Positions 12,083-47,632 of a stretch of 64,000 nucleotides of DNA are shown here, piece after piece. The stretch spans positions 1 to 64,000 of IMG/VR virus record IMGVR_UViG_3300010354_000044. One strand, given 5' to 3'. This DNA comes from a virus. The notes under the pieces were generated by a model. The model was not told the DNA's origin and did no database searches. It saw nothing but the letters and a program-made list of their open reading frames with translations. Every line of letters begins with the position of its first letter. Within the stretch, counting starts at the first letter, position 1. The translations under genes and the position numbers were made by a program.

Positions 12083-12084
12083 AA

Positions 12085-13792: not shown

Positions 13793-13793
13793 C

Positions 13794-17874: not shown

Positions 17875-17906
17875 AATTTGTACCCTTATTTATTATTTTA
17901 ACTATA

Positions 17907-18053
17907 ATGACTATCCGTGATTTAACTCTAAAGCTATCAACTAATACATTGACGACAGAGGAAAGGACTCTCTTGCATCAACTATTAGAAGAAAAGGATA
18001 TTAAGCCAATTATTAAACAGGCTAATACGGCGCTAGAAGGACCAGTTCAGTAA
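17907..18053 (+). CDS. Small antisense-oriented hypothetical protein (48 aa), not in the ORF track
   Basis: MTIRDLTLKLSTNTLTTEERTLLHQLLEEKDIKPIIKQANTALEGPVQ fills the only sizeable gap in the baseplate operon. Confidence 0.4.
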   Translation: MTIRDLTLKLSTNTLTTEERTLLHQLLEEKDIKPIIKQANTALEGPVQ

Positions 18054-19905: not shown

Positions 19906-19910
19906 ATCTT

Positions 19911-21191: not shown

Positions 21192-21259
21192 AAAAGCCTG
21201 GTTTTAGTACCAGGCTAGTCTAAGTCCTATTTGTAAATGTAGTCAGCTTTAATAGTTTA

Positions 21260-21982
21260 TTAAGCTACCGCCCAGCCTGGTTGTCCGTTATTAATTGGAT
21301 TCAGAGTAGGTCTTGCCGAGTCACCTTCATAAGAGCCGTAAACCCGTAGGTTACCCTCAGAGTCGCCAAGAGTTGTCCCTGCATAGACAGAGCTTTGGTC
21401 AATATAGGTAATACCTTCAGCTAGCCCTTCCCATCGCACAGCAATCACAGAACGACCCGCCATTGCGCCAATCGTCATGCTATCTACCTTACAGTAGCTA
21501 AGCCGGTACTGACCTGTACTATGCCGACGATTAGCAAAAGTTTGATTGGTAATTAGTTCTCCCAAAGCGGAGTTTCGCATGCTAGATTCACTTACAGTTA
21601 AGCCACGCTCATCTAGCTCAGGAGCATTCAAGTCAAATGTGATTAGAAAACGGGGGGAGCGGGAAATCCGCATTTCCCGTCGGATGTCGTCGAATCCAAA
21701 GGTCTGCTGAATTACCCGAGTATCTAGGAGGCCCCGCTCCAAAACCCAACCAAACTGGAATTCACCATCCAGCATACGAGGTACACGCTGGTTAAATTCC
21801 ATGTAAGGCTCTGTCGCATTGCGGACAGTTAACTGAATGGAGGTAAATCGGCCTACGTGGACTTGGTTGCCGGTGGCTTGGTCCACCATCCAGACATCAG
21901 CGTCAAAGCCCTGTAAAGGGTCTCTAATTGCATTATTAACGGCGGCGCCGTTAGCGGAATCTACAGTCTTGTATAAAGCCAT
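21260..21982 (-). CDS. Tail tube protein
   Basis: 240 aa directly downstream of sheath; beta-rich tube-like pattern. Confidence 0.7.
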   Translation of the reverse strand: MALYKTVDSANGAAVNNAIRDPLQGFDADVWMVDQATGNQVHVGRFTSIQLTVRNATEPYMEFNQRVPRMLDGEFQFGWVLERGLLDTRVIQQTFGFDDIRREMRISRSPRFLITFDLNAPELDERGLTVSESSMRNSALGELITNQTFANRRHSTGQYRLSYCKVDSMTIGAMAGRSVIAVRWEGLAEGITYIDQSSVYAGTTLGDSEGNLRVYGSYEGDSARPTLNPINNGQPGWAVA

Positions 21983-21998
21983 TGTCTCTTAGCTCAAA

Positions 21999-24900
21999 TT
22001 ATAAGGTTTGGATAGATAGACTATCTTCAATTTCACGAGTTACATTTACACGAATGTAATCAGCAGGGAATACCGGCGTGTAGAAGATTGCAATATTTAG
22101 AACGCCTTGAGCTACTGTATTTGAAGGATTATTAGACTCGTTACAAAGGGTAGGTCTATAAGCAATAATCCGCTCTTCTCTTTGTAGGTTTTGAAGATAA
22201 GCATCTACAGCGGAGGCTACTCGGCTGCGCAATCCTTCTGTATTCCGGTTTGACCGAACCCAGATAAGGTTACTGTATAGATCATGTAGAATCTGGTCGC
22301 CCATGCGGCGGATAGATACATAGCGATCGTTGTATAAGGACGTGGTACTAATCCCATTTAGGAACTTGAATGTTCTCAGGCCCGCGTCATAATACAAAAC
22401 CTCGGCTCTGGCTCGGGTTACCGCATCCAAATAAGTAGTCGTGGTAGGGGTATCTACAGAAATAACACCATTAGGAATCATCCCTTCCCCTGCGGCTGCT
22501 GGGGAGATTTCTGGATTCTTACTTGCTAGCAGTCCTACATAAAGACCAGCTGCTGGGGTATTGTTAAATCCAGGAACCCCTTGCATTGTAATGTGGCCGC
22601 CAATTAGTACAACCCTAGGGTTATCTAGACCAGCGGCTAATACTTGAGCCTGACTCTCAGATAGATTTTGAGGCGCCTGAATAACGGCAGTACGAAGTCC
22701 CGTCATTACATTGGCGCGGTTAACCTGCCCAACCATTTCTTCTACTACAGAAGAGTAGTTTTGGTCTCCTGCTGTAAAGCCAGCGCAGTATAGCAAGGAA
22801 ATATCTTCTGATTCCAGAGCTTGTACCGCTTGTCTTAGGATAACAGCACGTTCTGCAGAGGATAGACTAGAGATGCTAGCATCACTGCCTCCCTCCAGAT
22901 AAACATTCTGTAAGTAAGGAGAGCCTACAGCTCCTTGGGCATAGACGGGTAAACTGTACGAGGCGGTAGAGCTAGACGCTACATTCAATACAGGGATTCG
23001 GTCGCCGTAAGAGGGTGCTTGCCTCATAGGTACCTTATCCAGCTCGGCTTCCGTGAGTATCTGCCCAGCAACTACAGGAAGATAGAAGACTCGGATTAGC
23101 CGGCTGTTAGCCGAGGCGTTAAATAAACCATTGGTGGCTACGTCCCGGGTGGATAAAGTTAAGGTCTCAGACGTGGGGGTGCTCAGGTAATCTCCACTAT
23201 CCTCGTCTACAACAAACAGCGTAAACTGACCGTTTGCTTGCGGTGTAAGAGTAACCTTTAGCTTATTGCCATACACCCCATCAGACAGAGCTAGGACACG
23301 GATTAGAGCATCCGAATCAATAGAGTAGAAGTCTTTAAAAGCTGGTCTAGATCCAACCGTGGCCCCTGCAAACGTTTTGATAGACGTAGATAGCCAGTTG
23401 GTATTAGAATCTGGTAGGTTCGTAGCATTCAATAGAAAGTCTTCGGCTACCACACTACCAGTAGTGCCCGAGACCTGCCTAGTCAATACAGCTTTTAGGC
23501 GGTTTGCGTCCGAACCGGTATAGTTGGATTTTAGGGTTAGGCTGGGAGGGTTTAAAGTGACTGACAGCTCTGGTTCCGCCAACATGCCTAGCATGTTAAC
23601 ATCAGCCTCAATCGCGGCTTTCAATTGGCTTAAAATCTGACCGGCCCCAGTACCTACACTAAAGTTACTCTGGCCTGCGACTGAACCGATACCAACTGAA
23701 GCGTAGGCTACAGGCACCCGAAAGGTACCGCCCAGAAGGAACGCAATCTTGTTGGAACTTTCAATGCCTGGTAGGTCTACAGTAATACCAGAAGGGATAG
23801 CAAAAATAACACCATCACTGCGCTCGAACAGTAATTGATGGTTAAAATTATCTTGCTTAACAGCTTCATCTGAAACTACATAAGAATCTACAACCGCCGA
23901 ACGTAAATCGGATTCAAATTGTGTTTGCAAATAGCTGTAGGTCATAGGGTCACTTAGTACCCCTTGGCTGTTGGCAGGAATATTACCGCTTAGAGTCCCG
24001 TTAACTGTTACATTGCTCGCGCTAGCTGCAGCTTGGGTCCCTACTACAAAATACCCGTTAACCCCAAAATCAATAATAAACCCACGGTCTACACGGTAAG
24101 GCAAGGATGTTAGTTGAATAGAAGTAGCGCCATTGGTGTGCGCACTATTACCGGTAGTGACCGTTGAGTTAGCTTTTTTCTTGTACTGAGGTAAAGACCC
24201 AGAATTTACCCTGAATGTTGAAGAAAATACATACTTATTAGTAGCCACCTCGTACAGACTAACAGGGGCGTTAGAAAGAGCTGCCGAGATATTACCCTGC
24301 ACTAAGAATCTGACCATCGTAGGACTAGTGGGGTCCTGGCTGGCGTTAGATAGAACTACCAAGGGCTTCCCAGTGCTGGGGTTAAAAGCAGTGGCAGAAT
24401 TAGAGTAGATTAACCGCCCGGGCTTTAAGTTAGAGATGAAAGCTTGGTTAGCCGTAAGGGTCTGGTCCGCCTGTACCCACTGGATCTGAGCCTCTAAAGC
24501 AGGAGTTCCGCCGGTTTCCGGTACGTAGGTTTGAGGAGCTGTGACCAGGGCATTAGTAGTAATTACAGGCTCTACAGTCGGCTGAGTATTTTGTAAGATG
24601 GTTACCGTAGGGGTTGCAGAGGTCAATAAACCACTGAGGGCAACCGAAGTGTTAGAGCGTAAAGCATCGTTTACGAGCTTAAAGGTGGCGTTAGGAAAGT
24701 ACAGGTAAGAGCCGGCCCCTAGGTTAGTTGCTAGACTGGTGACCGTTAACGTCTTAACTTGTACGGCGGAGACAGTACCAGCTTCTAACGTGCCAGGGTT
24801 CTTAGATACAGTAGCCGTTACAGCAGGGGTTATAGCTGTAATCGTGACCTGCATGTTGTTGCTAGAGACTGAGTAAATCTCATTAACAGCAGGAGTAGCT

Positions 24901-25550
24901 CCCTGTGGGTTAGTTAAGGTTAGGGTCTGGTTTAACGCATAGGTTGTAGTTGAAGCTACGTCAAAAGAAATAGTCTTAGATACGTTAGATACCGGCGCAG
25001 CTACGGTTACTTGAACGCTGCTTTGCAGATAATCCTCTACAACATATTCAAATAAACCTAGGCCTGTATAATCAATAGAGGTAGGTAAAGCAGAGGCCGC
25101 AGATACCGAAAATGTACCTGCTGCCCTAGTAGACTCAATAGCTTCGCCAACATAACGAATGTCAAGCTTAAGTCCAGTTGTTTGAACCTGCGCGCCGTTG
25201 TTAAATTGTTGAATATTCCCACTGTAGCCTACACGAGCTTCGTTCGTAGGTAGCAGGCTGGAGAGACTGATTTTATAACTAGATTCAGTAGATTGAGGAG
25301 TAGCCCTAGAAATAATTAAATCAGTGGCCCCTTGTAGAATCGCTTGTCTTACGGCTACAGCCCCGGGAGAGTTATCATCTCCATAGAGATAAGCCGCGTC
25401 TTGGCGGTTGGTAACCCGAGTAGCTCCTCTAGGGCCCCGTCGGAACACACCAGCAACCCCAATCCGATTGCGGTATGTAGTAGTAAAAGGAATAGGCCCT
25501 ACAAGCGTTTCACTAAAAGAAACATTAGGAAAAGAGAATTGCTGCGCCAT
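21999..25550 (-). CDS. Contractile tail sheath protein
   Basis: N-terminal FPNVSFSE...GVAGVFRRGP; C-terminal YVSIRR...ESNNP...GVLNIAIFYTPVFPADYI. Confidence 0.92.
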   Translation of the reverse strand: MAQQFSFPNVSFSETLVGPIPFTTTYRNRIGVAGVFRRGPRGATRVTNRQDAAYLYGDDNSPGAVAVRQAILQGATDLIISRATPQSTESSYKISLSSLLPTNEARVGYSGNIQQFNNGAQVQTTGLKLDIRYVGEAIESTRAAGTFSVSAASALPTSIDYTGLGLFEYVVEDYLQSSVQVTVAAPVSNVSKTISFDVASTTTYALNQTLTLTNPQGATPAVNEIYSVSSNNMQVTITAITPAVTATVSKNPGTLEAGTVSAVQVKTLTVTSLATNLGAGSYLYFPNATFKLVNDALRSNTSVALSGLLTSATPTVTILQNTQPTVEPVITTNALVTAPQTYVPETGGTPALEAQIQWVQADQTLTANQAFISNLKPGRLIYSNSATAFNPSTGKPLVVLSNASQDPTSPTMVRFLVQGNISAALSNAPVSLYEVATNKYVFSSTFRVNSGSLPQYKKKANSTVTTGNSAHTNGATSIQLTSLPYRVDRGFIIDFGVNGYFVVGTQAAASASNVTVNGTLSGNIPANSQGVLSDPMTYSYLQTQFESDLRSAVVDSYVVSDEAVKQDNFNHQLLFERSDGVIFAIPSGITVDLPGIESSNKIAFLLGGTFRVPVAYASVGIGSVAGQSNFSVGTGAGQILSQLKAAIEADVNMLGMLAEPELSVTLNPPSLTLKSNYTGSDANRLKAVLTRQVSGTTGSVVAEDFLLNATNLPDSNTNWLSTSIKTFAGATVGSRPAFKDFYSIDSDALIRVLALSDGVYGNKLKVTLTPQANGQFTLFVVDEDSGDYLSTPTSETLTLSTRDVATNGLFNASANSRLIRVFYLPVVAGQILTEAELDKVPMRQAPSYGDRIPVLNVASSSTASYSLPVYAQGAVGSPYLQNVYLEGGSDASISSLSSAERAVILRQAVQALESEDISLLYCAGFTAGDQNYSSVVEEMVGQVNRANVMTGLRTAVIQAPQNLSESQAQVLAAGLDNPRVVLIGGHITMQGVPGFNNTPAAGLYVGLLASKNPEISPAAAGEGMIPNGVISVDTPTTTTYLDAVTRARAEVLYYDAGLRTFKFLNGISTTSLYNDRYVSIRRMGDQILHDLYSNLIWVRSNRNTEGLRSRVASAVDAYLQNLQREERIIAYRPTLCNESNNPSNTVAQGVLNIAIFYTPVFPADYIRVNVTREIEDSLSIQTL

Positions 25551-33623: not shown

Positions 33624-34181
33624 ATGGCTATACCTTCTTTGGCTTATCTACTCTCGGTCCAGAAGCTACTGGAAGTTTATGTGAAAGAGTCTCTTGTAGA
33701 CCTAACTAAGCCTCAGTGTAATATCAGAATTCCAGGCTTACCCGCTCGCATGGTTTGTAGCCAGCAGCTTCTAAATCTGAGTGATTTTAACTGGGACTTT
33801 AGTAATTATGATTTCTGTCTGTCTATCTTAGAATTGGAAGAGTCTATCGCTGACTCAATAGCACACGCTCAGATAAGTAATAATAACCTTTTTATTATTA
33901 TGAACGACTTTAAGTCGTATAACTTCCTAGTACCTAACTATCCAGCGCTTTATGATAAGCTTGTAGCCGCCCAGATGATTCGCCTAGGTTGTACCTTAAG
34001 AGAGTACCCGGGCAGATATATTGTCATAAAGGACATCTCTACAAAACTATTTGAAACAAATGGTATAGCCTGTAGCTGTGAAGCGCCTCTATGTAACCAC
34101 AGAACGCTGGCTAATGTTTACATCAATAATTCCAAGCTGTTGCAACCTATTGTAAGTGCCAGCATGCCTGGTTATTTCTGA
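33624..34181 (+). CDS. SWIM-type zinc-finger protein
   Basis: CSC-x4-CNH (CxCxnCxH) near the C-terminus; opposite strand to its neighbours. Confidence 0.55.
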   Translation: MAIPSLAYLLSVQKLLEVYVKESLVDLTKPQCNIRIPGLPARMVCSQQLLNLSDFNWDFSNYDFCLSILELEESIADSIAHAQISNNNLFIIMNDFKSYNFLVPNYPALYDKLVAAQMIRLGCTLREYPGRYIVIKDISTKLFETNGIACSCEAPLCNHRTLANVYINNSKLLQPIVSASMPGYF

Positions 34182-35599
34182 TTTAACTTCCCACTAGGTT
34201 TACGCCCAGATACTGGTCTAGGTTTATCCAAAGGGGTAGAAACGCCTACGGGTCTGCCCGGCTGTACCTCTTCCAGCAATACCTTCTTGATAAAGTCTAC
34301 GTCCTTCTTATCGTGCGGCCTGTCTAAAGCTCTTACCATCTGCCGGACCATCTGGTGGTCAGTCGGATTCAAGGGGTTAAAGTAGCCAGACTTTGTCATA
34401 CCAGTGACGACTTGCATCATAGCCACACGATCTTCAGCCCGATCACTATAGACCCGAGAGAAGCTGGCTGCATACCGGGTTGATTCACGGTTGAAGTTAT
34501 ACTCAATTAGCCTTGAGAAGGCTTGGCGGGCAATAGGCTGTAGCAATAGATTCCTGTAGTGCTCCATATTGCCATAGTACAGCTCCATACGGCGCTCTAC
34601 CCCTTGTTCATTGTTATTCAATTCATTGGTAATAAGGAAAGGCGGGATACCCAGTGGTAAGATTTCTTGCTCAGTTACAAACCTAATAGCATCTATAAAC
34701 GTACTGCCGATATTATTTCCGGTGGTGAGAGAACCTACTTCAGGCTTATTCGCCCCATCCTGTTGGGGTAGGAATAGGATGTTACCGTTGGTATCTAAAT
34801 TCTGTATGGTCTCTTGAAATACATCCTGAGTGGTTAAACTACGCTCCTCGCCAGTAGCAGGGTCAATGGTAGTTTGATTGGTTGGGTAAACAGGCATCTT
34901 GACATATAGCAATGGATTACCATAACGGTCTAAAGCCACTGCCATCATGTCAATCAAGGCATCCTTTAACCTATGCCATTTATAACAAGGAGCTACCGCT
35001 GAATAACCATAATAATTACCAAATGCAGCATTATTAGCAACGTAGATGATCTTCCAGAAGGGCAGCTGCTTCTCGGGTCTAAATCTATTAGGTGTTTGAT
35101 AAATTCCTGATTTCCAGTACCCACCGGGCGTAGGTTTATTCTCGGTTAACATCCCGTTAACATCTGGGCGGATAATGATAGTGTTCGGCGGGTATGTCAC
35201 AATACCATCTAGGAACAGCGTACCCATGTCCAGATTATACAGATTCTCTGATACAGAGAACCCGGCCCACAAAGTCGTAAATATAGCTTGAAATAGTATT
35301 TCGTTTAGGTTCTGGTTGGTCTTATCCTGAAGTTTCTGAACGTTGTATTGTAGGAACTCTTTTATCTCTGGGTCCGGATGATAAACCGTACCAACAGTAG
35401 ATAAGATACTCTTTACCATTATATTGAGGGCAGTAAAGAGCGTTGTATCCTGATAGACCATCTGCTCGTAAGTTTTTAGCTTCTGGAGCGATGGGCGTAA
35501 GGTTCCTACTGGGATAGACCCTTGCTGCCTGGATGCACCCCGTATTTGACGCCTGCTCTCAAAGCGTCTATCTACTGTATAAAGGGTAGATGGGGCCAT
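34172..35599 (-). CDS. Portal protein (Mu gp29/DUF935-like)
   Basis: WAGFSVSE, FGNYYGYS...Y, ALDRYGNP, LIEYNF motifs. Confidence 0.88.
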   Translation of the reverse strand: MAPSTLYTVDRRFESRRQIRGASRQQGSIPVGTLRPSLQKLKTYEQMVYQDTTLFTALNIMVKSILSTVGTVYHPDPEIKEFLQYNVQKLQDKTNQNLNEILFQAIFTTLWAGFSVSENLYNLDMGTLFLDGIVTYPPNTIIIRPDVNGMLTENKPTPGGYWKSGIYQTPNRFRPEKQLPFWKIIYVANNAAFGNYYGYSAVAPCYKWHRLKDALIDMMAVALDRYGNPLLYVKMPVYPTNQTTIDPATGEERSLTTQDVFQETIQNLDTNGNILFLPQQDGANKPEVGSLTTGNNIGSTFIDAIRFVTEQEILPLGIPPFLITNELNNNEQGVERRMELYYGNMEHYRNLLLQPIARQAFSRLIEYNFNRESTRYAASFSRVYSDRAEDRVAMMQVVTGMTKSGYFNPLNPTDHQMVRQMVRALDRPHDKKDVDFIKKVLLEEVQPGRPVGVSTPLDKPRPVSGRKPSGKLNQK

Positions 35600-35810: not shown

Positions 35811-37006
35811 TTAAGTTAAAAACCGCGCAATACTAGAGCCAGGGTCTCTCGGGAATTGCAGCTTAGACTGATTTTCAGCTCTAATCATATCCAGCTTCTT
35901 CTCCTGTTCCCTAGCTGCCCGCTCCCGAGCTCTGACAACTTCTTCTACTTCCCAAGCGATAGCCTTTTTGATTAGGTCATCCAGGCCATGATCTTGCATC
36001 CATGGGTCTCGGCCTAACCAGTCTTGTATGGGTAGATACGTAATCTGGTTGATAGCCACCCAAGAGGCTATGTCATACTTCTTAGCTACTGCCTGTACTA
36101 AATCCTGCTGATCGTTAAAGTCGCTAAAAAATGCTTGTTCGTCCGAGGTGTACTCAAATCTAATCAAGAAATCAACAGCTGTTGAAGCTAAGGCGCCCAG
36201 TAAGTAATATAACGGTTCAAAAACCTCTACTCTATAAATTGGATAGTTGTCTAAGAAACAGTGGCTTTGCGGGATTGTACTGGCGTAGTAGCTTCTGTCA
36301 AGTCTTTGGGACCTGAGGATAGCTGCTGCCTCAGATCGCCAGCTAACTTTTTTGCGTCATCCATATCAGTATCGCCAATAGTAAACATATTGATGAACAC
36401 CGTAGCTGCAAACTGGACATCAGCAATATCCCAGCTATCTAGAATAGAGATAACATCCTTTGGCTTTTCTACCTCTACGTCATTGACAGTAGCTAAGCAG
36501 TACGATAATAGAAACTCTTCTAACGAACATCCAGTTTCAGCCATGCCATTATACTTTTTGTCTGCCTGAAACTGTACGCCGGTAGAAGGGGTATTGAACT
36601 CAATAGTAAGGTTTGGGTTTGGCATAGACCCTTTCGGAATTCTATACCGGGGTTGGTACTGCTTAGACAGGTTCTCTGCAATTTCCTTTGCACTTTGAGC
36701 TTGTTCCTTAGATAGAAACAGCAAGTCTGTCATAGCGATTGTTAGAAACTGTCGGTCCCGAATAGGAAAAGGCTCTAGTCTATCAACGAGGTCCCGGGGC
36801 TGACTATCAAAGGGCTTATCATCTACCTCTTTCATAGCAATAGCCAAAAGCAGCTCTTCCACCGAATAAGGCATACGCTCCTGTTGAGGGTAACGGCGGC
36901 GTGCGCTTCGGTACATACTATACGTCGGAATTTCCAACGTCAGTGAATATAGTTGAGACGGGATCTGGCTTTTGTCAATCCGCAGAGTCTTTACATCAAT
37001 AGCCAT
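35811..37006 (-). CDS. Tail assembly chaperone, frameshifted long form (G-T-like); contains track ORF 35811..36167
   Basis: The -1 frame is open from the slippery A AAA AAG (36353-36347) into the 35811..36167 ORF, which itself has only a weak TTG start. Confidence 0.7.
36251..37006 (-). CDS. Tail assembly chaperone (short form)
   Basis: Two similar internal halves (...EELLLAI/EEFLLSY...D.QF); slippery site near the 3' end. Confidence 0.7.
   Translation of the reverse strand: MAIDVKTLRIDKSQIPSQLYSLTLEIPTYSMYRSARRRYPQQERMPYSVEELLLAIAMKEVDDKPFDSQPRDLVDRLEPFPIRDRQFLTIAMTDLLFLSKEQAQSAKEIAENLSKQYQPRYRIPKGSMPNPNLTIEFNTPSTGVQFQADKKYNGMAETGCSLEEFLLSYCLATVNDVEVEKPKDVISILDSWDIADVQFAATVFINMFTIGDTDMDDAKKLAGDLRQQLSSGPKDLTEATTPVQSRKATVS
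36347..36353 (-). promoter_or_regulatory. Programmed -1 ribosomal frameshift site A_AAA_AAG
   Basis: In-frame GCA AAA AAG; TGA in the -1 frame just upstream; 9-bp hairpin GATCTGAGG/CCTCAGGTC starting 9 nt downstream. Confidence 0.75.
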
Positions 37007-37117: not shown

Positions 37118-37354
37118 ATGGTTTATGGCAAGCTTTTACTAGTTACTATTTTTGCTATGCTTTACCAACGATCTAAGGCTTCTAATCTGGCCCTACAACT
37201 TACATTGGTGTACATTATTGTAACTCTGAATTTTATATCAGCCGGTATTACTAATGCCGCGGCCACTAAAATAACAGCAGAACGTATGACGGGCCGGCCA
37301 TCGACCAATGAAGCTGTTACCTACAGGCATAAAACCACAACTCCTGCGTATTAA
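37118..37354 (+). CDS. Small hydrophobic protein
   Basis: Stop overlaps the giant gene's start (TAATG), suggesting translational coupling. Confidence 0.35.
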   Translation: MVYGKLLLVTIFAMLYQRSKASNLALQLTLVYIIVTLNFISAGITNAAATKITAERMTGRPSTNEAVTYRHKTTTPAY

Positions 37355-40300
37355 TGTCTTTATTCCCCGAGTACAATATATACGGGCCAGATAGTCTTGG
37401 GCGTGATGTACAAAGGTTAATAGATTCAGAAGCTGACCCTGAAAGTATTGCCCGACGTCAACTAACTTTGCCTAACCTAGAGGCAGAACGTGAAGTTGCA
37501 GCTTTTAGGTTAAACTACGGTGAGGTTCATACAAAGCCTGGGAATCGTTACAACATACTGGGCCAAAAGCTATATGACCCTTTACCTACTGCAGTAGAAG
37601 GTCGGTTGGCTACTGGCAATTTGCAGGCAAATATCACGCAAGATAGAACGATTCAATTAAGAGGGTTAGAGGTTATCAACACCCTTAACTCCGGGCTAGG
37701 GGGTACAGCAGCCCCCGCTCTTAGTAATCGCCAGGGTTCTATGGCAAATCGTTTTACTAAGACGACAGTTTTTGATAGCCTTGTAGGCCCTAGTGATACT
37801 AATATTTTACGGGGTCTTGTTAATAGTCCGGTATTTGAAGAGCCGGTTACTGTAAGGCCTACAACTCAAGATATATCAAACCAATTAGTCTTTCCGACTC
37901 AACAACGCACTAATTATAGTTCCCATTTAGGGGCCTTTGCTCATAAAAATGTTAATGAACAAGGGGTGCAGGAATTATACAATAGCGTTGTCAACCTACA
38001 AAATAGTCTGGGTAATGCTATTACGTCTATAGAAAGACAGTATGCCCAGCAAATGGTTAATGGCCGCATTGAACGAGTACTAGTCGGCGTTCGTGTAGGC
38101 ATTCGTAATTATAACGATTTATACGATGGCCTAGGTTTATATAGTCAGGCATCTTATCCCGGTGTACAGCGGGCGCACTATTTCAATTTCACAGTTAATA
38201 GAAACAACCAGGTTATAGAGACCAGTACTAATAGACTTATTACAGGCTCTCTAATCTCTCAAAACTCTGGTCATATCTCTAATATGGGGGGTCGCAATAG
38301 CGCTTATAACACCGTACTGGGTTTACTTTCTAGCTATGCTAGGTCGGCTGAAATTGAGGCTAAGTACGGAGTTACTCATAGTCTATTTAATATCATGGTT
38401 GCGAGGCAAGACTATAGCTCGTTAGGGCGGGTCTTTGCTGAAATGCTAATTCAACGTGACCAAAGTACTATTGTTAACCAGGGTAATAAGTTCAGGGAAA
38501 CGCTGGAGCTTTTACTAAGCACGACAAATAATAAGGGCCTATCGTCCATTGTAGAAAATACGGTTGATAGGATCGCCAGACAAGGTCTAGATTACTATAC
38601 AACCATTGGGGCTCTATTAGATAAAGATGTACTAGAGCAGCAAATTAATAAACTTTATAGTTATAGGAAGCAGCAGCTACTAAAGGCCTTTGAACCTATT
38701 ACGTCCCATGTAGGTGGGATTAACGAGACGTTTGGTCTAGCTGTAGATACAACTTTACGCAACCTCAATGAGCTTGTAGCTAACGATGCCGAGCAGTTTT
38801 CTATTCCTATAAACGGGCGGCGGGTCACTATTGCCGGGTTTGAAGACCTGAAAATGGCTGCGTTGTCCCTCAGTCCATCGGAGCACGCTCATTATGATTT
38901 TAGAAAGAATCAAGCGAGTAGTTCCATATTGCAGCTTTTGATGTCGCCGTTTCTAATGCCGCACGAAACAGGCTTCAGCGGCTCCCAGGCTGCCGCTCGG
39001 CTTGGTTTCTACCACATGGTAGAAACTAGGGGTGGGCGTAATATGTATGAAATATACCCTGCAGTCTACCGGCATGGTTTCGGCGGCACAAAACCTGGGG
39101 AGTACATTAAATTAATCTCAGCACAGTCCGCTAAGTCCAGCTTATTTAAATACACCTCCCATTTATATAACTTTACCGGAGCCAAGAAAGTCGTAGAGTT
39201 CTTTGAAACTCGTACAGTCTTTGAAGGTATGCCCGCCTTGCGCTATAGCTCCCTCAAAGAAGTAAGGGAACACTTGCAGAGTATCAACTATACAAGCGCT
39301 GATGAGATTATAAAAAATTACAAGACTCGGATGCATCTTGGGGCGGATGAGGAGGATGACACTGAGATTCTACTACTGCCCTTTAGAAAGGCCGAGCAGA
39401 TTAGCCAGCGGTTAAAGAATCTACTAGGCGGGCGTCCTATGCTAGAACTTAACACAACCTTCCGCCAAGCTATTCTGAAGCAGGATAAAGAGGCTCTGCT
39501 TAACTTGTTTGAGCGTAATGAGTTCGGGGATTTGTATCTAAGCGCGAACGCCCTGGCCGGTGAAGTGCCCGCTAATCTAAACAAGATACAATATGACCGT
39601 CTTATTCTAGAACGGAATCGTATCATAAAACGTCTAGGCTACGAAGGTAGGGCTTTAAGTGATAGCGAAAAACTCATACTATCCACCGAGCTTGTTAAGG
39701 CCATGCGGGCAGCAGAGCTTGATATATTTGACGGAGGCGGTTTTGTACAAGGTCGCCGGACCCGGCGAGTTGCTGTAGCAATGGGTGTGAACACCCTTAG
39801 CGACTTCATGCTTGTTAATAATGATTACTTGCAAGCATCGTCTTTTGGGTACATGCATGTTAGTAACCAAAAAATTGCTATTACGCATACCCTTAAAACA
39901 GATAAAGTCGGTACGATACGGCAGCCTGACCCTTTATTTGATGCAAAGGTCAACTTTATTGCTAGCGCATTTAGGCCAGGGACTATTGTCTACTTACAAC
40001 CAAAGGCTTTAGAGAATGAGAAGGTAAAGGATAGCTTAAGCAGATTAGCGGCTAAGTTACGCAGTGAATATCTGGCCAAGAATTTAGACAGCCGCTATTT
40101 AGATGCGCAGGTTACGCAAGCTTTACTACAGTCTTTCCCTGCTCTTGATTCAGTTAGCTTTACTGATGGTGAGTTAACCACAGTAATGCTCAAAGCTGGT
40201 GCATATCAGTTTACTAATGACTCCATTAACTTCCTAGGGGCTCTGGAAGGAAGCAGAATCCGACTAGGATTAATGAATAAAGGGGGGCGCTTTAATCTAA

Positions 40301-43300
40301 CCACTGGCCCTAGCTCAGAGCCTGGCACTGAGTTCTTCGAAATAAAAGTACCTGGAGAAGTCCGTAAGTACACAGGAGGTATGCTAGCTGTTGCCGGGCC
40401 TACCAAAGCAAAGCCAGGTCAGGGCGGCGGCCTAGAGCTAGAAATCCCCTGGTTAATAGAAACAGGAATTGGAGGTACAAGCCGGTCATCTTCCCTGACT
40501 AAGGGGCCTTGGTTAATGTACGACGGCGCCGGATTTGAAGCCTTTGGCACGGCTTTCAAAGCCAATTCTATGCTTTCACATCTCCAGAATGACAGCATCT
40601 TTGCCGTGATGAACCCGGGCGTTTTCAAGGCTTATAATTATGAATCTGGGCTGTCTATTCTACGGGATACTGCGTCTAGGCAAAGTCTACTGAATTTAAG
40701 TAGCGGCGATTTAAGTTTGATTCTGGGTATCGCGTTTTTACAAAAGAACACGGATACCCGTCTTCGGCAAGCCCTGGTCAATTACCTAGACAGTAACTCC
40801 AGTTCACTAGCAGTAAGCCCTTACTTACGAACGCTTATTCAAGATAAATCCTTTGGATCATCAGCGGCTAAGTTAGAAAACCTCTTACTAACAGCTCCTG
40901 ACTTAGCTACCTTAGTAGATAGTCCAACCCTTAGAGACTTTGGAGATAAATTAGCTGAGCAATTTGAGAGTGGGACTTTTGATATACAGAGCCGACTTGA
41001 AGCTATTGTTAATAGGGCTCTTAAAGGGTCTACGACTATTTATGAACAGATAGAAGGGGATGTACGGGGCATTCGCACGTTTGACGAGCGAAACTTTAGT
41101 GTACGTAGTGCCGGCATTTTAGCTGATATTATTCATACAACACAACAAACAATAGACCCAAGCCGTACTTTAGGTCGTATAACAGGCAGTAAACCCTTAA
41201 CAGGCCTTAACTTTATAGATGATCAAGGCCGCCCTAACGTTAGAAAATTTATAGATAACCGCGATTTCCGGGCTGCATCGTTAGACATGGCGCAAAAACT
41301 AAGGGTGCGCTCTCTGTTGCCCAATCAGAGTATTTTAGAGAGCTCTTTAAGTCAGCTCAGGGAGGGGGATGCTCTTTATAAGGACATAGAGAACCTGCTC
41401 TATGTTATCCATAGTTCGTTAATGGCGTCTCCCTACATTGAACGAGCCATTAATTTACTACCTAGTCGTGTTTTATACCCGGCAGGCTCTGAGGACGCTG
41501 TAGGCCTAGAATACCATTATTCTTTAAGCCTTAGTAAAAAAGAGTTTGCGGCCTTACGGGGGCAGGGGCTTGATATGGAAAGGTTCACCCAAGCCCAAGC
41601 TGCTTATAGCACTGTTGTAACCCATAGTGGTGTTAATGAAATTAGCCGTAGGATGGAGATTATATCTCCATTTGGTGTAGACCCAGCGCAGCGGAATTTA
41701 GGTCGTATCGTCTCGGCGCTTATACAGAATTACAATGAGATATCGGGTAAAGCTCAGTTTATTGGTAATGATAACCTTAGCCCCTTAGATGCTATTGTCC
41801 GTAGTATAAGCGCCGGGGATGAGACTGAGCTAAATAGCTTAATGTCCCGGTATCAACTTATTAATCAAGCCGTAAGGTATCATCGCGGCGTAGGCCCCTC
41901 TGACCAACAAAGTGCGGTTAATCTGATAAGTGCGGTTAATCTGATAACTGCGCTTAACCCGAGTCGGCTTGATTTAAGTCAAGCCACTGACGAGCAAATT
42001 AGAACCTTAGGAGCTTTATATAACCTAAGGGGCGATGTTACTACTATCCGGCAAAGGTTGTCGGAGTTAGGCCCTACGTTGGGCCGAGGTCTGCTTTATT
42101 TAGACCGCAGTGACAATCTATTTAGTGAAAGGCGCTTGGCTTTGTCTAAAGCCATTATAACCTACTCGGAGTTAAGACGAAATAAGGGGCTTACTGACTT
42201 AAGTTACAACCTAAGTCCTTATGCTGCTGACGTACAGTCTGCATTAGTAACTTCAAATGTTAATAGCTACAATATTGGGTTTCTTGAGTTTGAGCAGGCC
42301 TTAAATTTAGTCACAGACCAGTCCTCCGGACGCCTTGATGTTAGATACGCCGATAATAGGTCTACAAAGATACTTAATGTAGCCAGTAAATTGCAAGCTA
42401 ATGACGCTTTTGTAGAACGGCTAGCGTTGAACGCCGCGGGTACTAGCACTACAGATACGTTTATTAATTCTCTACAGCGAATAGTAGCCGGTACAGAGAA
42501 TATTCTTAAATTCTATGGAAAGGAGACTGAACAAGCCCAGAGAGCACTAAAACTTCGTAGTGAAGTTTACGATACAAAAACGTTGCTCCTACCTGCTATT
42601 GAAACATATACAGCGGGAGACGGGACTATTATAAAACTAGCTGAGTCAGATAGTAACGGAAAAGTACAGTATACAGATACTCCCGTAGTTCAACTAGGGT
42701 TGGATGTTCTAAGTCAAATACCTACTAGATTTGAATCTTACATTAATGAAGTTGTGGAACGCCAGCAACGTATTCGTGAGCTGATTCCTAAATTCCAGGA
42801 AGTGGTTAACCAATTACAGAAGGGCTTCATCTCTAATGCATCTGTCAGCGATATCAGCATTATAGAAGAGATGCAGCGATTAGCTTACGAAAGTCAACAT
42901 GATTTAGAATCTATTTTAACGTCTGTTCTGCAGCAGAATGCTGAGAACGAGAAGCGTAAATACCCTGGGGTGGCGTTTACAGCAGTAGCTGATTACTTAG
43001 CTACACCTACAGAGGCTTTTGTCGGTAAGCGAGTTACCTCCACTGGGTTAAACCAGGTAGTTAGGGATGCGAAAGCTACTTTAAACTCCCCGGAGCTGTC
43101 CAAGGTAGAAGTAGAAGCACTACAACGTATCGGCCAGTTAACCGGGTATGTCAACAGGGCTGGGGGCTTAAGCGGAGCAAGCCAGTCTACTAACATGCTC
43201 CATGATGTTAAGTCTCAGGCTATTCTAAAAGAACGTGGTCAGCTAGAGAATAATCAATTACAGCTATCTCTACAGGGTAATGAAACAGCCTTGATTGTTT

Positions 43301-46300
43301 CTATGTACGGACGATTCGGGGTCCATGGCGGTGACTTTGATGGTGACTCTTATCAGCTGATATTCGGATTTAGGGATATCCAAGAAAGCCTTGTCAAGGC
43401 TATTCAGCACCGCGATGCTATCCGTAATAGCCTGCTAAACCTACAGAGTCAATCTACTCTAAATTCAGATTACAATGTCGCTATTCAAGGTAGGATATCC
43501 AATCTACAGACAGCCCTTACCGCCAGCCAGCAGGACGTAGATAGGTTAATTACTGAGGTAGATAATCTAAGCACCATTACCGCCGACCGGGTTAAAGAGG
43601 GTATGCGTAGGCACGTAGCTGCTTTTACGGGTATTCCCTTGTCTTTGGCTCTAAAACCGGAATATTACAGCGATGAAGAAATCGCGTACATGATTGAACA
43701 GCAGCGAGGGGTTACTCCGGGTTTGACTGACGCCGGCGAGAAGTATGGCGATCAAATAACAAAGTTTACTCAGCTGTTTAACAGACTTAATCCAACCACT
43801 CTCGCTAGTGCCTCGGATGAGATTATTGATTCTGAAGCTAGCCGACTCAAGTTCAGCGCAGAGGAGCTTAGTCTCTTCAAGGAGTTTGCCCGCCAAGATA
43901 ATTTGTACGCGGACAATCTAACGGCTTCGGACCGTAACCGTTTATTTACCGAATCTATCACGTCTTATTTTAACCTGCACATGGGTTTATCTGAAGGGAA
44001 TAAATTTGCCCAGGCCGCCGCAGGTTCTGTATTGGATTTAGGAACCTTTGAGGTTCTCCAGACGGTAGTAGGTAATGTAGGGACATCCTTAATTGGTGAA
44101 GGCTATAACGCTATCACGACACTTATTGGCCGCAGTGTTCTAGCTAGAACTATGGGGCAGGCCTTAAATGACCCTACTACAAATATAGGCGAGGGAATCG
44201 TTCAAGCGCTGGATACCCTAAATACCAATAATACTTTAGACGATAATGTAACCCGTATCAAAGACTTATTTTCAGAAGGGCGATTAAAGCAAACGGCGGC
44301 GTTTGCCGAGTCCCGGGCCCAGCAGTTACAAATGAATTTAGGGCTTATCCAGCAAATCATCCGGGACTCGCTAAAGCCAAAACAAGAGGGAGGGACTATT
44401 GCGGCCATTGCGGAGCAGATGGGCGATGAAAGCTTTAAGACTAAGTTCCTTAACGAGCAAGATACGGACACGCGCATGGAGTTGTTGCGCAACTTCGTGT
44501 CCACCAGAGCGGTGACAACCATGGTTGGGAGTCAGACCTCTGGTAATACTTCCCTTATCAATACCTTCGGGGCTATCTTTTTATTAGCTGACTATACAAA
44601 GCTAGAGGACCCTACCTCTATGCTACGTAGTGATAGCCCTCGGTACGATACGCTGCGCCGCACCCAGCAACTATACAAATCAGCCGCAGAAGGGCTTGAC
44701 GTTAATCTTGAAAGTTTAGACGTTATCAGCCGCTTGAGACTCAAAGACAAAGAGTTTGTGGCCCGGATGGCGACAGATGAAGAATTTTTGGTACGTCAGA
44801 CAATAACTGATCTGATCAATACAGCGGTAGCTGAGGAGGCTTTCAATAAGTACTATGCTTATGGTCAAAGTGACGAATCTCTAATAAGCCGAGCTAACAT
44901 TGAGCGAGATAACTATATTAAAGCGTTATCCGACTCTAACCTTACAGGGGATAGCGGGCTGTACTTCAAGAACGAGCAGCACAGAGAAGCCGTCAGGAGA
45001 AGCCTCCATATAGATGGAAATACCGATGACTTTTTCTTTACGGCAGAGACGGCCCGGCAGTCCTTGTTAGACATAACTCTGGTGCGTAAAACCTTCCTGG
45101 GCATGACTGAGAGCGATGTAGAGTTCTCCCGGAAGGTCAATAGGGCCGGGTCCATTCTATCGCAGCCTGACATTAGTGCCAGTTTTGCCCCTTTTGCCAG
45201 TGCCCAGGCCGAGAACCTTGTAGCTATCCAACAATGGGCTAAGCGTGGTCGTATGGACGACCCTAGAGCCATGACTACATTTGAGATTGGTTCATCCGCA
45301 CGTTTATTTGACGCAATAGACCAGGTCCACCAGAATCTGACGGAGGAGTTTGGTTCTCTAGAAAACGCATTATCTAAACAGGAAGTATACGCAGCCTATT
45401 CTCAGATGGCCGAGCTCGCCGGCGTGTTTGATATTAGCAGGGAGGATAGTAATATTCTAAGCTTGGCGCTTCAGACAAGAGTTGAGGGCCGGCAGTCTAT
45501 ATTCTCAGAGTTAGCTAATTACAATGCCGGACTTGCTTATATGCAGGAACGTATTAACCAGCAACAGGATATTATTTCAAAAGGTACCTTAACTGATGCA
45601 GACGAAAGTCGGTTAAATACCCTTTACGCAGACCTAGAAGCTTTTGCCACCGGCTTAGATGCTAATGCCAATCAGAACGAGGCCTTCAGAGCTAAGGTAA
45701 GAGAGATTGGCGAGTTTCAGCGCTCCTTAAAAATGGACCAGGCTCAGCAGAGAAAGGCCACCTACGCCAATATTATTAATACAAAAATACATACACCTAC
45801 CTCCCTAGATGTTACTGGGTATGGGTTTAATAACACCTTGGAATTGTTTGCGGCCCCTATTATTGGGGCTGCGTTAATCCAAGGGGGACTTGACGAGCGG
45901 TTAGTCTCTGGGACTTACGATTTACTGCAGGGTCTGTCTACCGTTGAGGGTTCGGCCGGCAATGTAAGAGCACTAGAAGCTGACCGGTTATTTAGGTTGG
46001 CGCGCTTTAAAGAGCAAATGTTACAAGGGGAAAGTTTGCTTTTAGGTGCAACTCAAGCCCTAGCTGCCGAGACATTTTTCATGGGAACTGCGTCTTTAAT
46101 TGCCTCCAAATTACGTTCCCCCAACTCCCCCTCCCCTAACTCCCCTAACAATCGGCAGTCTGGTTTAAGTGGAATTATGGCCGAGGCAGTGGTTACAGCT
46201 GCTGCCTTGGCTTTTACTCGCCGGAACAACCAATATGGTATTGACGGAGAACCTTACCGAAATCTCGCTGCAGAGGCTCTATTACAGACAGCGGAAGCAA

Positions 46301-46509
46301 TAGAATCTAGCACCAGCGAATGGTTAGAACGTGCTATGGATATCCAGGTAGAAACGGAAGATCAAATTGTTACCTTTGATTTTGATCCTTCCATTGCCCC
46401 TAGTAGCTATGAAGAGCGTATTGTAACTGGCTGGATTGAGATGAGCATAGAAAACTCTGACGAATTTGCTAATGCTTATTATGAAACTGGGAATTATATT
46501 GATGGGTAA
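37354..46509 (+). CDS. Giant protein with single-chain two-barrel RNA polymerase motifs (putative virion RNAP, possibly tape-measure-fused)
   Basis: GGDFDGDS (DFDGD at 43333-43347) preceded by VNRAG and KRKYPG; upstream R..TKG and VMNPG; downstream LIGEGYN and IRDSLK. Confidence 0.8.
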   Translation: MSLFPEYNIYGPDSLGRDVQRLIDSEADPESIARRQLTLPNLEAEREVAAFRLNYGEVHTKPGNRYNILGQKLYDPLPTAVEGRLATGNLQANITQDRTIQLRGLEVINTLNSGLGGTAAPALSNRQGSMANRFTKTTVFDSLVGPSDTNILRGLVNSPVFEEPVTVRPTTQDISNQLVFPTQQRTNYSSHLGAFAHKNVNEQGVQELYNSVVNLQNSLGNAITSIERQYAQQMVNGRIERVLVGVRVGIRNYNDLYDGLGLYSQASYPGVQRAHYFNFTVNRNNQVIETSTNRLITGSLISQNSGHISNMGGRNSAYNTVLGLLSSYARSAEIEAKYGVTHSLFNIMVARQDYSSLGRVFAEMLIQRDQSTIVNQGNKFRETLELLLSTTNNKGLSSIVENTVDRIARQGLDYYTTIGALLDKDVLEQQINKLYSYRKQQLLKAFEPITSHVGGINETFGLAVDTTLRNLNELVANDAEQFSIPINGRRVTIAGFEDLKMAALSLSPSEHAHYDFRKNQASSSILQLLMSPFLMPHETGFSGSQAAARLGFYHMVETRGGRNMYEIYPAVYRHGFGGTKPGEYIKLISAQSAKSSLFKYTSHLYNFTGAKKVVEFFETRTVFEGMPALRYSSLKEVREHLQSINYTSADEIIKNYKTRMHLGADEEDDTEILLLPFRKAEQISQRLKNLLGGRPMLELNTTFRQAILKQDKEALLNLFERNEFGDLYLSANALAGEVPANLNKIQYDRLILERNRIIKRLGYEGRALSDSEKLILSTELVKAMRAAELDIFDGGGFVQGRRTRRVAVAMGVNTLSDFMLVNNDYLQASSFGYMHVSNQKIAITHTLKTDKVGTIRQPDPLFDAKVNFIASAFRPGTIVYLQPKALENEKVKDSLSRLAAKLRSEYLAKNLDSRYLDAQVTQALLQSFPALDSVSFTDGELTTVMLKAGAYQFTNDSINFLGALEGSRIRLGLMNKGGRFNLTTGPSSEPGTEFFEIKVPGEVRKYTGGMLAVAGPTKAKPGQGGGLELEIPWLIETGIGGTSRSSSLTKGPWLMYDGAGFEAFGTAFKANSMLSHLQNDSIFAVMNPGVFKAYNYESGLSILRDTASRQSLLNLSSGDLSLILGIAFLQKNTDTRLRQALVNYLDSNSSSLAVSPYLRTLIQDKSFGSSAAKLENLLLTAPDLATLVDSPTLRDFGDKLAEQFESGTFDIQSRLEAIVNRALKGSTTIYEQIEGDVRGIRTFDERNFSVRSAGILADIIHTTQQTIDPSRTLGRITGSKPLTGLNFIDDQGRPNVRKFIDNRDFRAASLDMAQKLRVRSLLPNQSILESSLSQLREGDALYKDIENLLYVIHSSLMASPYIERAINLLPSRVLYPAGSEDAVGLEYHYSLSLSKKEFAALRGQGLDMERFTQAQAAYSTVVTHSGVNEISRRMEIISPFGVDPAQRNLGRIVSALIQNYNEISGKAQFIGNDNLSPLDAIVRSISAGDETELNSLMSRYQLINQAVRYHRGVGPSDQQSAVNLISAVNLITALNPSRLDLSQATDEQIRTLGALYNLRGDVTTIRQRLSELGPTLGRGLLYLDRSDNLFSERRLALSKAIITYSELRRNKGLTDLSYNLSPYAADVQSALVTSNVNSYNIGFLEFEQALNLVTDQSSGRLDVRYADNRSTKILNVASKLQANDAFVERLALNAAGTSTTDTFINSLQRIVAGTENILKFYGKETEQAQRALKLRSEVYDTKTLLLPAIETYTAGDGTIIKLAESDSNGKVQYTDTPVVQLGLDVLSQIPTRFESYINEVVERQQRIRELIPKFQEVVNQLQKGFISNASVSDISIIEEMQRLAYESQHDLESILTSVLQQNAENEKRKYPGVAFTAVADYLATPTEAFVGKRVTSTGLNQVVRDAKATLNSPELSKVEVEALQRIGQLTGYVNRAGGLSGASQSTNMLHDVKSQAILKERGQLENNQLQLSLQGNETALIVSMYGRFGVHGGDFDGDSYQLIFGFRDIQESLVKAIQHRDAIRNSLLNLQSQSTLNSDYNVAIQGRISNLQTALTASQQDVDRLITEVDNLSTITADRVKEGMRRHVAAFTGIPLSLALKPEYYSDEEIAYMIEQQRGVTPGLTDAGEKYGDQITKFTQLFNRLNPTTLASASDEIIDSEASRLKFSAEELSLFKEFARQDNLYADNLTASDRNRLFTESITSYFNLHMGLSEGNKFAQAAAGSVLDLGTFEVLQTVVGNVGTSLIGEGYNAITTLIGRSVLARTMGQALNDPTTNIGEGIVQALDTLNTNNTLDDNVTRIKDLFSEGRLKQTAAFAESRAQQLQMNLGLIQQIIRDSLKPKQEGGTIAAIAEQMGDESFKTKFLNEQDTDTRMELLRNFVSTRAVTTMVGSQTSGNTSLINTFGAIFLLADYTKLEDPTSMLRSDSPRYDTLRRTQQLYKSAAEGLDVNLESLDVISRLRLKDKEFVARMATDEEFLVRQTITDLINTAVAEEAFNKYYAYGQSDESLISRANIERDNYIKALSDSNLTGDSGLYFKNEQHREAVRRSLHIDGNTDDFFFTAETARQSLLDITLVRKTFLGMTESDVEFSRKVNRAGSILSQPDISASFAPFASAQAENLVAIQQWAKRGRMDDPRAMTTFEIGSSARLFDAIDQVHQNLTEEFGSLENALSKQEVYAAYSQMAELAGVFDISREDSNILSLALQTRVEGRQSIFSELANYNAGLAYMQERINQQQDIISKGTLTDADESRLNTLYADLEAFATGLDANANQNEAFRAKVREIGEFQRSLKMDQAQQRKATYANIINTKIHTPTSLDVTGYGFNNTLELFAAPIIGAALIQGGLDERLVSGTYDLLQGLSTVEGSAGNVRALEADRLFRLARFKEQMLQGESLLLGATQALAAETFFMGTASLIASKLRSPNSPSPNSPNNRQSGLSGIMAEAVVTAAALAFTRRNNQYGIDGEPYRNLAAEALLQTAEAIESSTSEWLERAMDIQVETEDQIVTFDFDPSIAPSSYEERIVTGWIEMSIENSDEFANAYYETGNYIDG
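41911..41946 (+). repeat. 18-bp tandem duplication (SAVNLI x2) inside the giant gene
   Basis: AGTGCGGTTAATCTGATA twice, followed by a degenerate third copy. Confidence 0.8.
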
Positions 46510-47631: not shown

Positions 47632-47632
47632 G

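Follow-up and report, generated by a model that had tools for sequence, protein, structure and literature searches.

A family of giant proteins in Ma-LMM01-like phages as probable single-chain two-barrel RNA polymerases, plausibly delivered with the virion

The gene under study lies within the first 64,000 nucleotides (hereafter the window) of the IMG/VR virus record IMGVR_UViG_3300010354_000044, which has a length of 171,984 bp and an estimated completeness of 87%. It encodes P0001, a protein of 3051 amino acids (aa) that probably is a giant single-chain two-barrel RNA polymerase (RNAP) of the cellular type, delivered to the host with the virion. This statement as a whole is given a probability of about 0.6, and the fold of a two-barrel RNAP core as such is considered likely. 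Four observations carry the reading: the conservation pattern of the protein family, a beta-like fold in the N-terminal half of the core, a location in synteny with head genes, and the late transcription of a cultured homologue, gp080 of the Microcystis phage Ma-LMM01. The fold of the beta-prime barrel, the polymerase activity, packaging, ejection and a sharing of tasks between two enzymes are inferred.

In the proposed architecture, a beta equivalent (residues ~500–1400) and a beta-prime equivalent (residues ~1400–2400) would follow each other head to tail, flanked by N- and C-terminal regions that are specific for the family. Three basic residues, R1044, K1050 and K1092, would come from the beta-like module, while R1935 and the Mg-binding D1994, D1996 and D1998 would come from the beta-prime-like one, the two modules together forming a single active centre. 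The positions of these elements and of the neighbouring genes are listed in Table 1.

Conservation and predicted fold of the giant protein

The reading frame of the giant gene is intact over its full length, as had been claimed in the first-pass annotation of the window. All motifs quoted there are found at the residues given for them and are well beyond chance, i.e., TSR1044SSSLTK1050GP, AVMN1087PGVFK1092AYNYES, KRKYPG1872...EAFVG1891KR, YVNR1935AGG, GD1994FD1996GD1998SYQL, LIGEGYN2252 and QQIIRD2338SLKPK.

P0001 belongs to a large family. A word-indexed search returns seven relatives of 3048–3862 aa, and pattern scans identify 10 viral and 8 metagenomic loci as well as one in a metagenome-assembled genome (MAG), with a giant open reading frame (ORF) in every one of them. 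In an exhaustive search of 1.84 billion representatives with a hidden Markov model, 122 clusters are found, 109 of them with E < 1e-30 and nearly all with lengths of 3000–5400 aa. The family thus comprises about 120 clusters at 50% identity, encoded on contigs of 50 to 580 kb. The Ma-LMM01 protein gp080 (YP_851094, 3562 aa, annotated as hypothetical) is a member, with profile E values of 1e-180 and 7e-48. When three parts of P0001 are compared by blastn and tblastn with 50,697 phage records, Ma-LMM01 among them, no match is obtained; a profile search is therefore needed to find this homologue.

Some loci stand out from the rest. One family member is located on a contig of 582 kb (L015, ERZ1066139.2 NODE-2, 581,901 bp) and another one on a 7.8-kb contig that was binned with a MAG labelled Halobacteria archaeon (L020). 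The family may thus cover a wider range of sizes and hosts than Ma-LMM01-like cyanophages alone, unless the binning is in error. In a third locus (L011:2228–13336, IMGVR_UViG_3300040801_003693), one in-frame stop between 6640 and 6644 breaks the giant gene shortly ahead of the beta-like barrel, leaving ORFs of 1471 and 2231 aa, the second of which has both barrels. The interruption could be a natural split, a site of read-through or a sequencing error.

To describe conservation, 52 family members were aligned that have 13–49% identity to P0001 and a mean column identity of 12%. Invariance is limited to 16 columns: N689, K1050, K1092, G1872, R1935, G1993, D1994, D1996, G1997, D1998, G2248, Y2251, Q2334, R2337, D2338 and K2341, while R1044 and N2252 are nearly so. 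With the exception of N689, every invariant residue falls within the motifs that had been picked out beforehand. The pattern GD[FYW]DGD is present as a single copy in 109 of the 126 collected proteins; the others, mostly short entries, do not contain it. The acidic loop is not the motif of calcium-binding repeats: each protein has a single copy, and [SAT]-[FY]-Q comes after it in place of the G-x-x-D of repeat motifs.

For the beta-like half, residues 500–1420 were modelled with AlphaFold 2 (AF2) from a 16-row, locus-built alignment (A5), resulting in a predicted template modelling score (pTM) of 0.62 and a predicted local distance difference test score (pLDDT) of 67. VIA-align superimposes positions 118–885 of this model on residues ~750–1100 of Rpb2, ~689–1305 of E. 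coli-type beta and 10–583 of chain C of the phiKZ non-virion RNAP (nvRNAP). The best 50 matches of Foldseek in the PDB are all second-largest RNAP subunits, i.e., bacterial beta, Rpb2 of Pol I–V and phiKZ nvRNAP chain C, with E values of 0.0065–0.09 and none below 0.001. In BFVD, a segment of the Ma-LMM01 protein A0A7J4, itself a family member, is the best match (E 6e-11 over 819 columns), and RNAPs of giant viruses and jumbo phages come next. The best cluster in the ESM Atlas is a phage 'DNA-directed RNA polymerase' with PF00562 in 92% of its members, over 417 aligned residues. Although the individual scores are modest, the four libraries give a uniform answer with long alignments, so that a beta/Rpb2-like fold for residues ~620–1380 is the clear reading of the model.

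At the level of single residues, most family members have the sequence G-x-[RK]-x2-G-x4-K-G-[PV] (alignment A3), which by eye would correspond to beta GDKxAGRHGNKGV with its two catalytic-site lysines. The block around K1092 resembles either beta DIVLNPLGVPSRMN, in a collinear register, or beta WNGYNFEDS, which is the register preferred by hhalign (E 0.3, not significant). The model speaks for a second barrel of the beta type that brings basic residues to the active site, their residue-level equivalence being assigned by eye.

In the beta-prime-like half, the invariant NR.G and GDFDGD are collinear with NRAP and NADFDGD of beta-prime. Upstream of R1935, the family form is [KR]-x4-G-x-[SA]...E-x2-(L)G-x-R; G1891 and R1893 are invariant in an alignment of 8 sequences, and in an 18-sequence alignment at least 17 members have G1891. 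R1935 and GDFDGD are separated by 59 residues. A profile of 124 family sequences was compared by hhalign with a beta-prime profile made from E. coli rpoC, archaeal A' subunits and 7 jumbo-phage subunits. Around the triad, 72 columns are aligned with P = 1.1e-4, placing R1935 on the arginine of NRAP and GDFDGD on NADFDGD; 40 column-shuffled templates score 7–15, compared to 31.7 for the real one. An earlier comparison with a beta-prime profile dominated by archaeal sequences aligned the motif alone.

Further downstream, residues 2224–2254 are a candidate bridge-helix equivalent, judged from their position, and residues 2329–2343 are a candidate trigger-loop-base or nucleoside triphosphate-contact element. 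When the block 2205–2420 is compared with the beta-prime profile, hhalign finds nothing significant, and no fold match is found for these two candidates. Likewise, an ESM Atlas feature search with residues 1840–2420 gives no usable match. A complex prediction of residues 925–1400 with 1855–2130 scores 0.08 and counts neither way.

As to lineage, K1050 and D1994 are 944 residues apart, and K1092 and G1872 approximately 780. The equivalent distance in a head-to-tail arrangement of E. coli beta and beta-prime is approximately 730 residues (GNKG at 1071 of 1342; NADFDGD at 458), whereas QDE-1 and gp66 of the crAss-like phage phi14:2 have a connector of approximately 140 residues between their barrels. 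Together with the multisubunit-type beta neighbours of the model, this spacing suggests that P0001 is a derivative of a fused beta-beta-prime rather than an enzyme of the QDE-1/YonO type, to which it had been likened at first. Among the structural matches listed for the N-terminal half, there is no QDE-1, RDR, PolD, gp66 or P23-45 chain. Both the structural neighbours and the spacing make the protein look like a member of the fused beta-beta-prime lineage.

Table 1. Elements of the giant gene and neighbouring features (coordinates refer to the window; the last row lies beyond its end)
Feature	Coordinates	Strand	Basis or remark
Contractile-tail module, separate	8380..25550	-	Sheath, tube, M23 peptidase, 627-aa, 911-aa, baseplate wedge
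Baseplate wedge	10548-11603	-	Tail module
M23 peptidase protein, 426 aa	19911-21191	-	Directly after tube gene; corresponds to Ma-LMM01 gp095
Tube	21260-21982	-	Tail module
Sheath, 1183 aa	21999-25550	-	Tail module
Portal protein	34172..35599	-	Homologue beside giant gene in 14 related loci and Ma-LMM01 (gp083)
251-aa protein, divergent neighbour	36251..37006	-	Homologue adjoins giant gene in 14 related loci
Hydrophobic ORF, 78 aa	37118..37354	+	Two hydrophobic stretches; stop overlaps giant-gene start (ATGA)
Giant ORF, protein P0001, 3051 aa	37354..46509	+	Open without interruption for 3051 codons
Predicted fold of C-terminal half of RNAP beta/Rpb2 (hybrid-binding/double-psi beta-barrel region), residues ~620-1380	39211..41493	+	AF2 model, VIA-align, Foldseek, Atlas
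TSR1044-SSSLT-K1050-G-P	40477..40509	+	R1044 nearly invariant, K1050 invariant, Lys-Gly-Pro
AVMNPGVF-K1092-AYNYESGL	40603..40653	+	K1092 invariant
KRKYPG1872...E1887..G1891-K-R1893	42952..43032	+	G1872 invariant; by-eye likeness to beta-prime KRVDYSGRS...GLP, first catalytic-barrel strands
YVN-R1935-AGG	43147..43167	+	R1935 invariant; placed by hhalign on Arg of beta-prime NRAP
G-D1994-F-D1996-G-D1998-SYQLI	43330..43362	+	Invariant metal-binding-type triad; aligned to beta-prime NADFDGD
Long helical hairpin after acidic loop, residues 2007-2092	43372..43629	+	AF2 model helices 268-295, 302-353; generic hairpin matches only
Candidate bridge-helix equivalent, residues 2224-2254	44023..44115	+	G2240, G2243, G2248, Y2251, N2252 conserved; ~250 residues past triad
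QQxxRDSLKPK, residues 2329-2343	44338..44382	+	Conservation; Q2334, R2337, D2338, K2341 invariant
C-terminal region, residues 2820-2960	45811..46233	+	Hydrophobic stretches, strongest 2936-2955; P2835, E2906 nearly invariant
Second giant gene, 2859 aa	65363-73939	+	Locus L091:1363-9942; SF1 helicase, VRAP...GDFDGD, NADAR, Macro

Gene neighbourhood, timing and possible delivery

The giant gene is part of a conserved head/virion module. On the minus strand, PHROG and Pfam matches outline the large terminase, the baseplate wedge, the 911-aa and 627-aa proteins, the M23-peptidase protein, tube, sheath, major capsid protein, protease and portal; the plus strand carries the 78-aa hydrophobic ORF and the giant gene, followed by virion and baseplate-like proteins. 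A search of 19 related loci shows a portal homologue adjoining the giant gene in 14 of them, a homologue of the 251-aa protein likewise in 14, and one of the 537-aa downstream protein in 11. In Ma-LMM01 (NC_008562), this map is mirrored, with gp080 divergent from gp083 (portal-like), gp085, gp086 (capsid), gp091 (sheath), gp092, gp093 and gp095 (metallopeptidase). The gene of P0001 has the same place as gp080, on the upstream side of the portal/head/sheath module and in divergent orientation to it. The two proteins differ in length, gp080 being approximately 500 residues longer, and share approximately 25% local identity by tblastn. In addition, gp080 reportedly has a PLD-type HKD motif, whereas P0001 has no HxK(x)4D. 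In UniProt, gp080 is named 'PLD phosphodiesterase domain-containing protein'; it is uncharacterised, and no mention of it was found in the literature searched.

The transcription of gp080 has been recorded during infection. It is in class B5, with log2 counts of 0 at the first two time points, 7.3 at 3 h and 8.5 at 6 h, a profile that resembles those of many structural genes, while the early genes gp054–gp063 are already at 7–8 at 1 h (Table S3, PMC5780444). Late-class expression thus coincides with a location in the structural module, in synteny with portal, protease and capsid. If an enzyme is made late but has to act early, the virion would have to carry it. The papers on the Ma-LMM01 transcriptome and on the MaMV-DH01 genome describe these phages as having no polymerase and as relying on host SigA in each of the three temporal classes, and they find temporal control without altered host transcription puzzling.

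Packaging of the giant protein in the virion is plausible, with roughly even odds. Most likely, the protein would be produced along with the virion proteins, take a place close to the portal inside the head and leave through the contractile tail together with the DNA, after which it would transcribe the first phage genes. Its C-terminal region (residues 2820–2960), in which E2944 is conserved in smaller alignments of the family, is a possible membrane-active or ejection element, as suggested by its hydrophobic stretches. The 78-aa ORF may be co-translated with the giant gene or may encode a small membrane partner.

In the 172-kb record, no Rpb1- or Rpb2-type polymerase other than P0001 is found. 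A T7-type polymerase (PF00940) is not found in the record either, but the same search is blank in control genomes too and therefore says little. There is, however, a second giant gene beyond the end of the window. Its product combines a superfamily 1 (SF1) helicase (AAA_30, UvrD_C_2, PIF1) with a middle part free of domain assignments that contains VRAPMTRS and, after 41 residues, NLGDFDGDG, followed by NADAR and Macro domains; from these motifs, it is a candidate non-virion polymerase. Pfam at an E of 10 detects no polymerase family in this protein, and BLASTP against P0001 reveals motif likeness only. In Ma-LMM01, the early cluster gp054–gp063 is directly preceded by the gene of gp064 (NC_008562 43811–48832, minus strand, locus L092; 1673 aa, hypothetical). 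The gp064 protein contains IQRTPMG...NEGDADGDQ, a beta-prime-like pair of NR.P and DxDGD, and may be another unrecognised polymerase. Here too, Pfam at an E of 10 detects no polymerase family, and BLASTP against the second giant protein reveals motif likeness only.

Tentatively, the Ma-LMM01-like contractile-tailed phages could have host-independent transcription by two unrecognised enzymes: a head-packaged beta-beta-prime fusion of 3000–5400 residues that is ejected, and an intracellular single-chain polymerase, which in this genome would be fused to a helicase and two ADP-ribose erasers. The helicase-fused candidate could then take over from the ejected enzyme.

Several proteins of the tail module and its surroundings lack a clear assignment. 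The 627-aa protein is gp093-like; the 911-aa protein has no assignment, and an ESM Atlas feature search with it gives no usable match. The 426-aa M23 protein has weak matches to endolysin and tape-measure PHROGs, the latter over the peptidase part, and may be a cell-wall-piercing component of the tail. An ORF of at least 1488 aa at positions 1–4464 on the minus strand continues past the beginning of the record. Thr, Ser, Ala and Asn are very abundant in its product and charged residues are scarce, its G+C content is raised (0.54) and it has no family match; it probably encodes a fibre or adhesin.

Points against the polymerase and alternative readings

A number of results weigh against a packaged two-barrel RNAP. 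Neither P0001 nor its family reaches a polymerase family at significance in Pfam, PHROGs or PDB phmmer/hmmsearch: the whole protein has zero matches in Pfam, PHROGs and PDB phmmer, the family profiles A2, A3 and A4 return coiled-coil noise only from PDB and Pfam, and the Pfam families RNA_pol_Rpb2_6 and RNA_pol_Rpb1_2 fail to recognise it (E up to 1–10). The by-eye mapping of R1044, K1050 and K1092 on the beta lysines is not confirmed by hhalign, neither register being decided. On the beta-prime side, the AF2 model of residues 1740–2420 (18-row alignment) has a mean pLDDT of 60 and drops below 50 over 1860–2005, triad included, and Foldseek and VIA-align return helical hairpins only for this model. 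While structure prediction and fold searches thus lead to beta/Rpb2 for the N-terminal half, the beta-prime-type barrel, claimed together with the beta-type one in the first-pass annotation, is argued from sequence, at the level of motifs. The hhalign signal in its favour is real as judged from the shuffled controls, but it mostly is the DFDGD motif itself, as the reversed template scores 21.6 and removal of the motif leaves the same register with P = 0.25. With respect to delivery, sigma-70-like promoters have been reported for the early genes of Ma-LMM01, by in silico prediction only. No virion proteomics for any family member was found in the literature, and mass spectrometry is still called for in the MaMV-DH01 paper.

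One alternative is a giant protein, located inside the head or ejected, that is built on a polymerase-derived scaffold and has no polymerase activity, its invariant acidic loop having another metal-dependent or structural role. For such a protein speak the failure to model the second barrel, the silence of profile methods, the occurrence of GDFDGD-like loops in calcium-binding repeats and the triad of crAss gp66, which in the crystal is in an inactive conformation. Yet the triad, the Arg of NR and the three basic residues correspond to what is expected of catalysis on both barrels and are kept down to ~13% identity, and the motif is single and followed by [SAT]-[FY]-Q, unlike the repeats with G-x-x-D; this explanation is therefore improbable. 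Rather unlikely as well is a real two-barrel polymerase that is made at middle or late times and acts inside the cell, for instance on late genes or in an RNA-primed process, with infection being started by the host polymerase. The SigA-like promoters predicted for early Ma-LMM01 genes, the undisturbed host transcription and the absence of a proteomic sign of packaging agree with it, and gp080 RNA at 3 h is early enough for an enzyme acting in the cell. However, the giant gene adjoins portal and head-morphogenesis genes across the family, ejected proteins typically show the extreme size and the conserved hydrophobic C-terminus found here, and the second candidate, in the non-structural part of the genome, fits the intracellular role better.

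Two further explanations are very unlikely. In the first-pass annotation, a tape measure fused to a polymerase was proposed, as in gp96 of the Thermus phage P23-45. Besides this precedent, the hydrophobic stretches in the C-terminal 230 residues fit, and the observation that the window has no recognisable tape measure holds, as no protein in it matches such a family, apart from the weak match of the 426-aa protein. However, the giant gene lies outside the tail module, on the strand opposite to sheath, tube and baseplate, and P0001 itself has no tape-measure match in PHROGs or Pfam. As the gene is part of the head/virion module, past the portal gene and divergent from the head genes, a position kept in Ma-LMM01 and most relatives, the positional case for a fusion falls. 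The outline of the tail module is complete, and unassigned large proteins there could measure the tail; the metallopeptidase that is usual in such tape measures is encoded by a separate gene, and the polymerase core extends to residue 2400 of 3051. Near the C-terminus of P0001, there is one weak hydrophobic 19-mer only, short of the transmembrane segments looked for in a tape measure. The frameshifted tail chaperone that had been assumed next to the giant gene is not supported either: the ORF pair at 46723–47631 and 47615–48484 has no chaperone match, and no slippery heptamer is seen in the overlap. Just as improbable is a two-barrel enzyme of another specificity, i.e., a QDE-1-like RNA-dependent RNAP or a PolD-like DNA polymerase. 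The two-barrel fold does serve RNA-dependent RNAPs and archaeal PolD too, and template specificity cannot be read from the present data, but the structural neighbours listed for the beta-like half are all subunits of DNA-dependent multisubunit RNAPs.

Significance and comparison with known polymerases

If the reading as a packaged polymerase is true, one or possibly two phage-borne polymerases would explain the puzzle of timing in the Ma-LMM01 papers, and a large environmental family would join the short list of virion polymerases. The protein would be a natural single-chain beta-beta-prime fusion and a model for a minimal cellular-type polymerase, as well as a case for studying how a protein of at least 340 kDa passes a contractile tail. 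The idea can be tested in culture, since Ma-LMM01, the only long-studied lytic phage of Microcystis, grows on Microcystis aeruginosa. If the reading of the core holds, the family is a new architectural variant among the two-barrel polymerases; reviews on jumbo-phage and two-barrel polymerases do not list it.

The virion RNAP of coliphage N4 is a giant protein of 3500 aa that is packaged, ejected and transcribes the early genes. Its fold is the T7-like single-subunit (right-hand) fold and not that of two barrels. The virion and non-virion RNAPs of phiKZ and AR9 (PDB 7OGP/7OGR, 7S00) have beta and beta-prime split over four or five polypeptides that are recognised by Pfam, whereas P0001 is one chain of 3051 aa that is invisible to Pfam. 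A partly fused form is found in the cultured 181-kb Salmonella phage Arash (L084, OQ632216 130093–134670), in which a 1525-aa 'RNA polymerase subunit beta' has a beta-prime DYDGD barrel near its C-terminus; this beta-beta-prime-N fusion is a useful comparator for fused forms.

With gp66 of the crAss-like phage phi14:2 (PDB 6VR4), P0001 shares the large single chain, the DFDxD signature, a gene among structural genes and an unknown fold for most of the chain. gp66 itself is a virion protein of 2180 aa with both barrels, encoded by a podovirus, and its short connector goes with a closest relationship to QDE-1. No sequence similarity between gp66 and P0001 is seen, the tblastn matches of gp66 being crAss-like and Flavobacterium phages. 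The Thermus phage P23-45 provides another giant virion protein with a hidden two-barrel polymerase, gp96, which at first was recognisable by DFDGD alone, and it additionally has a separate second phage polymerase, the non-virion RNAP gp64 (PMC10770324). As gp96 is a true tape measure encoded in the tail operon of a siphovirus, with the polymerase in its N-terminal 1540 residues (PMC10770324), it differs from P0001, which has a central core, a gene that neighbours the portal gene and a phage tail of the contractile type. Beside the split subunits of phiKZ, gp66 of the crAss-like phage and the tape-measure fusion of P23-45, the giant protein family would thus be a further independent route to a packaged polymerase of the cellular type.

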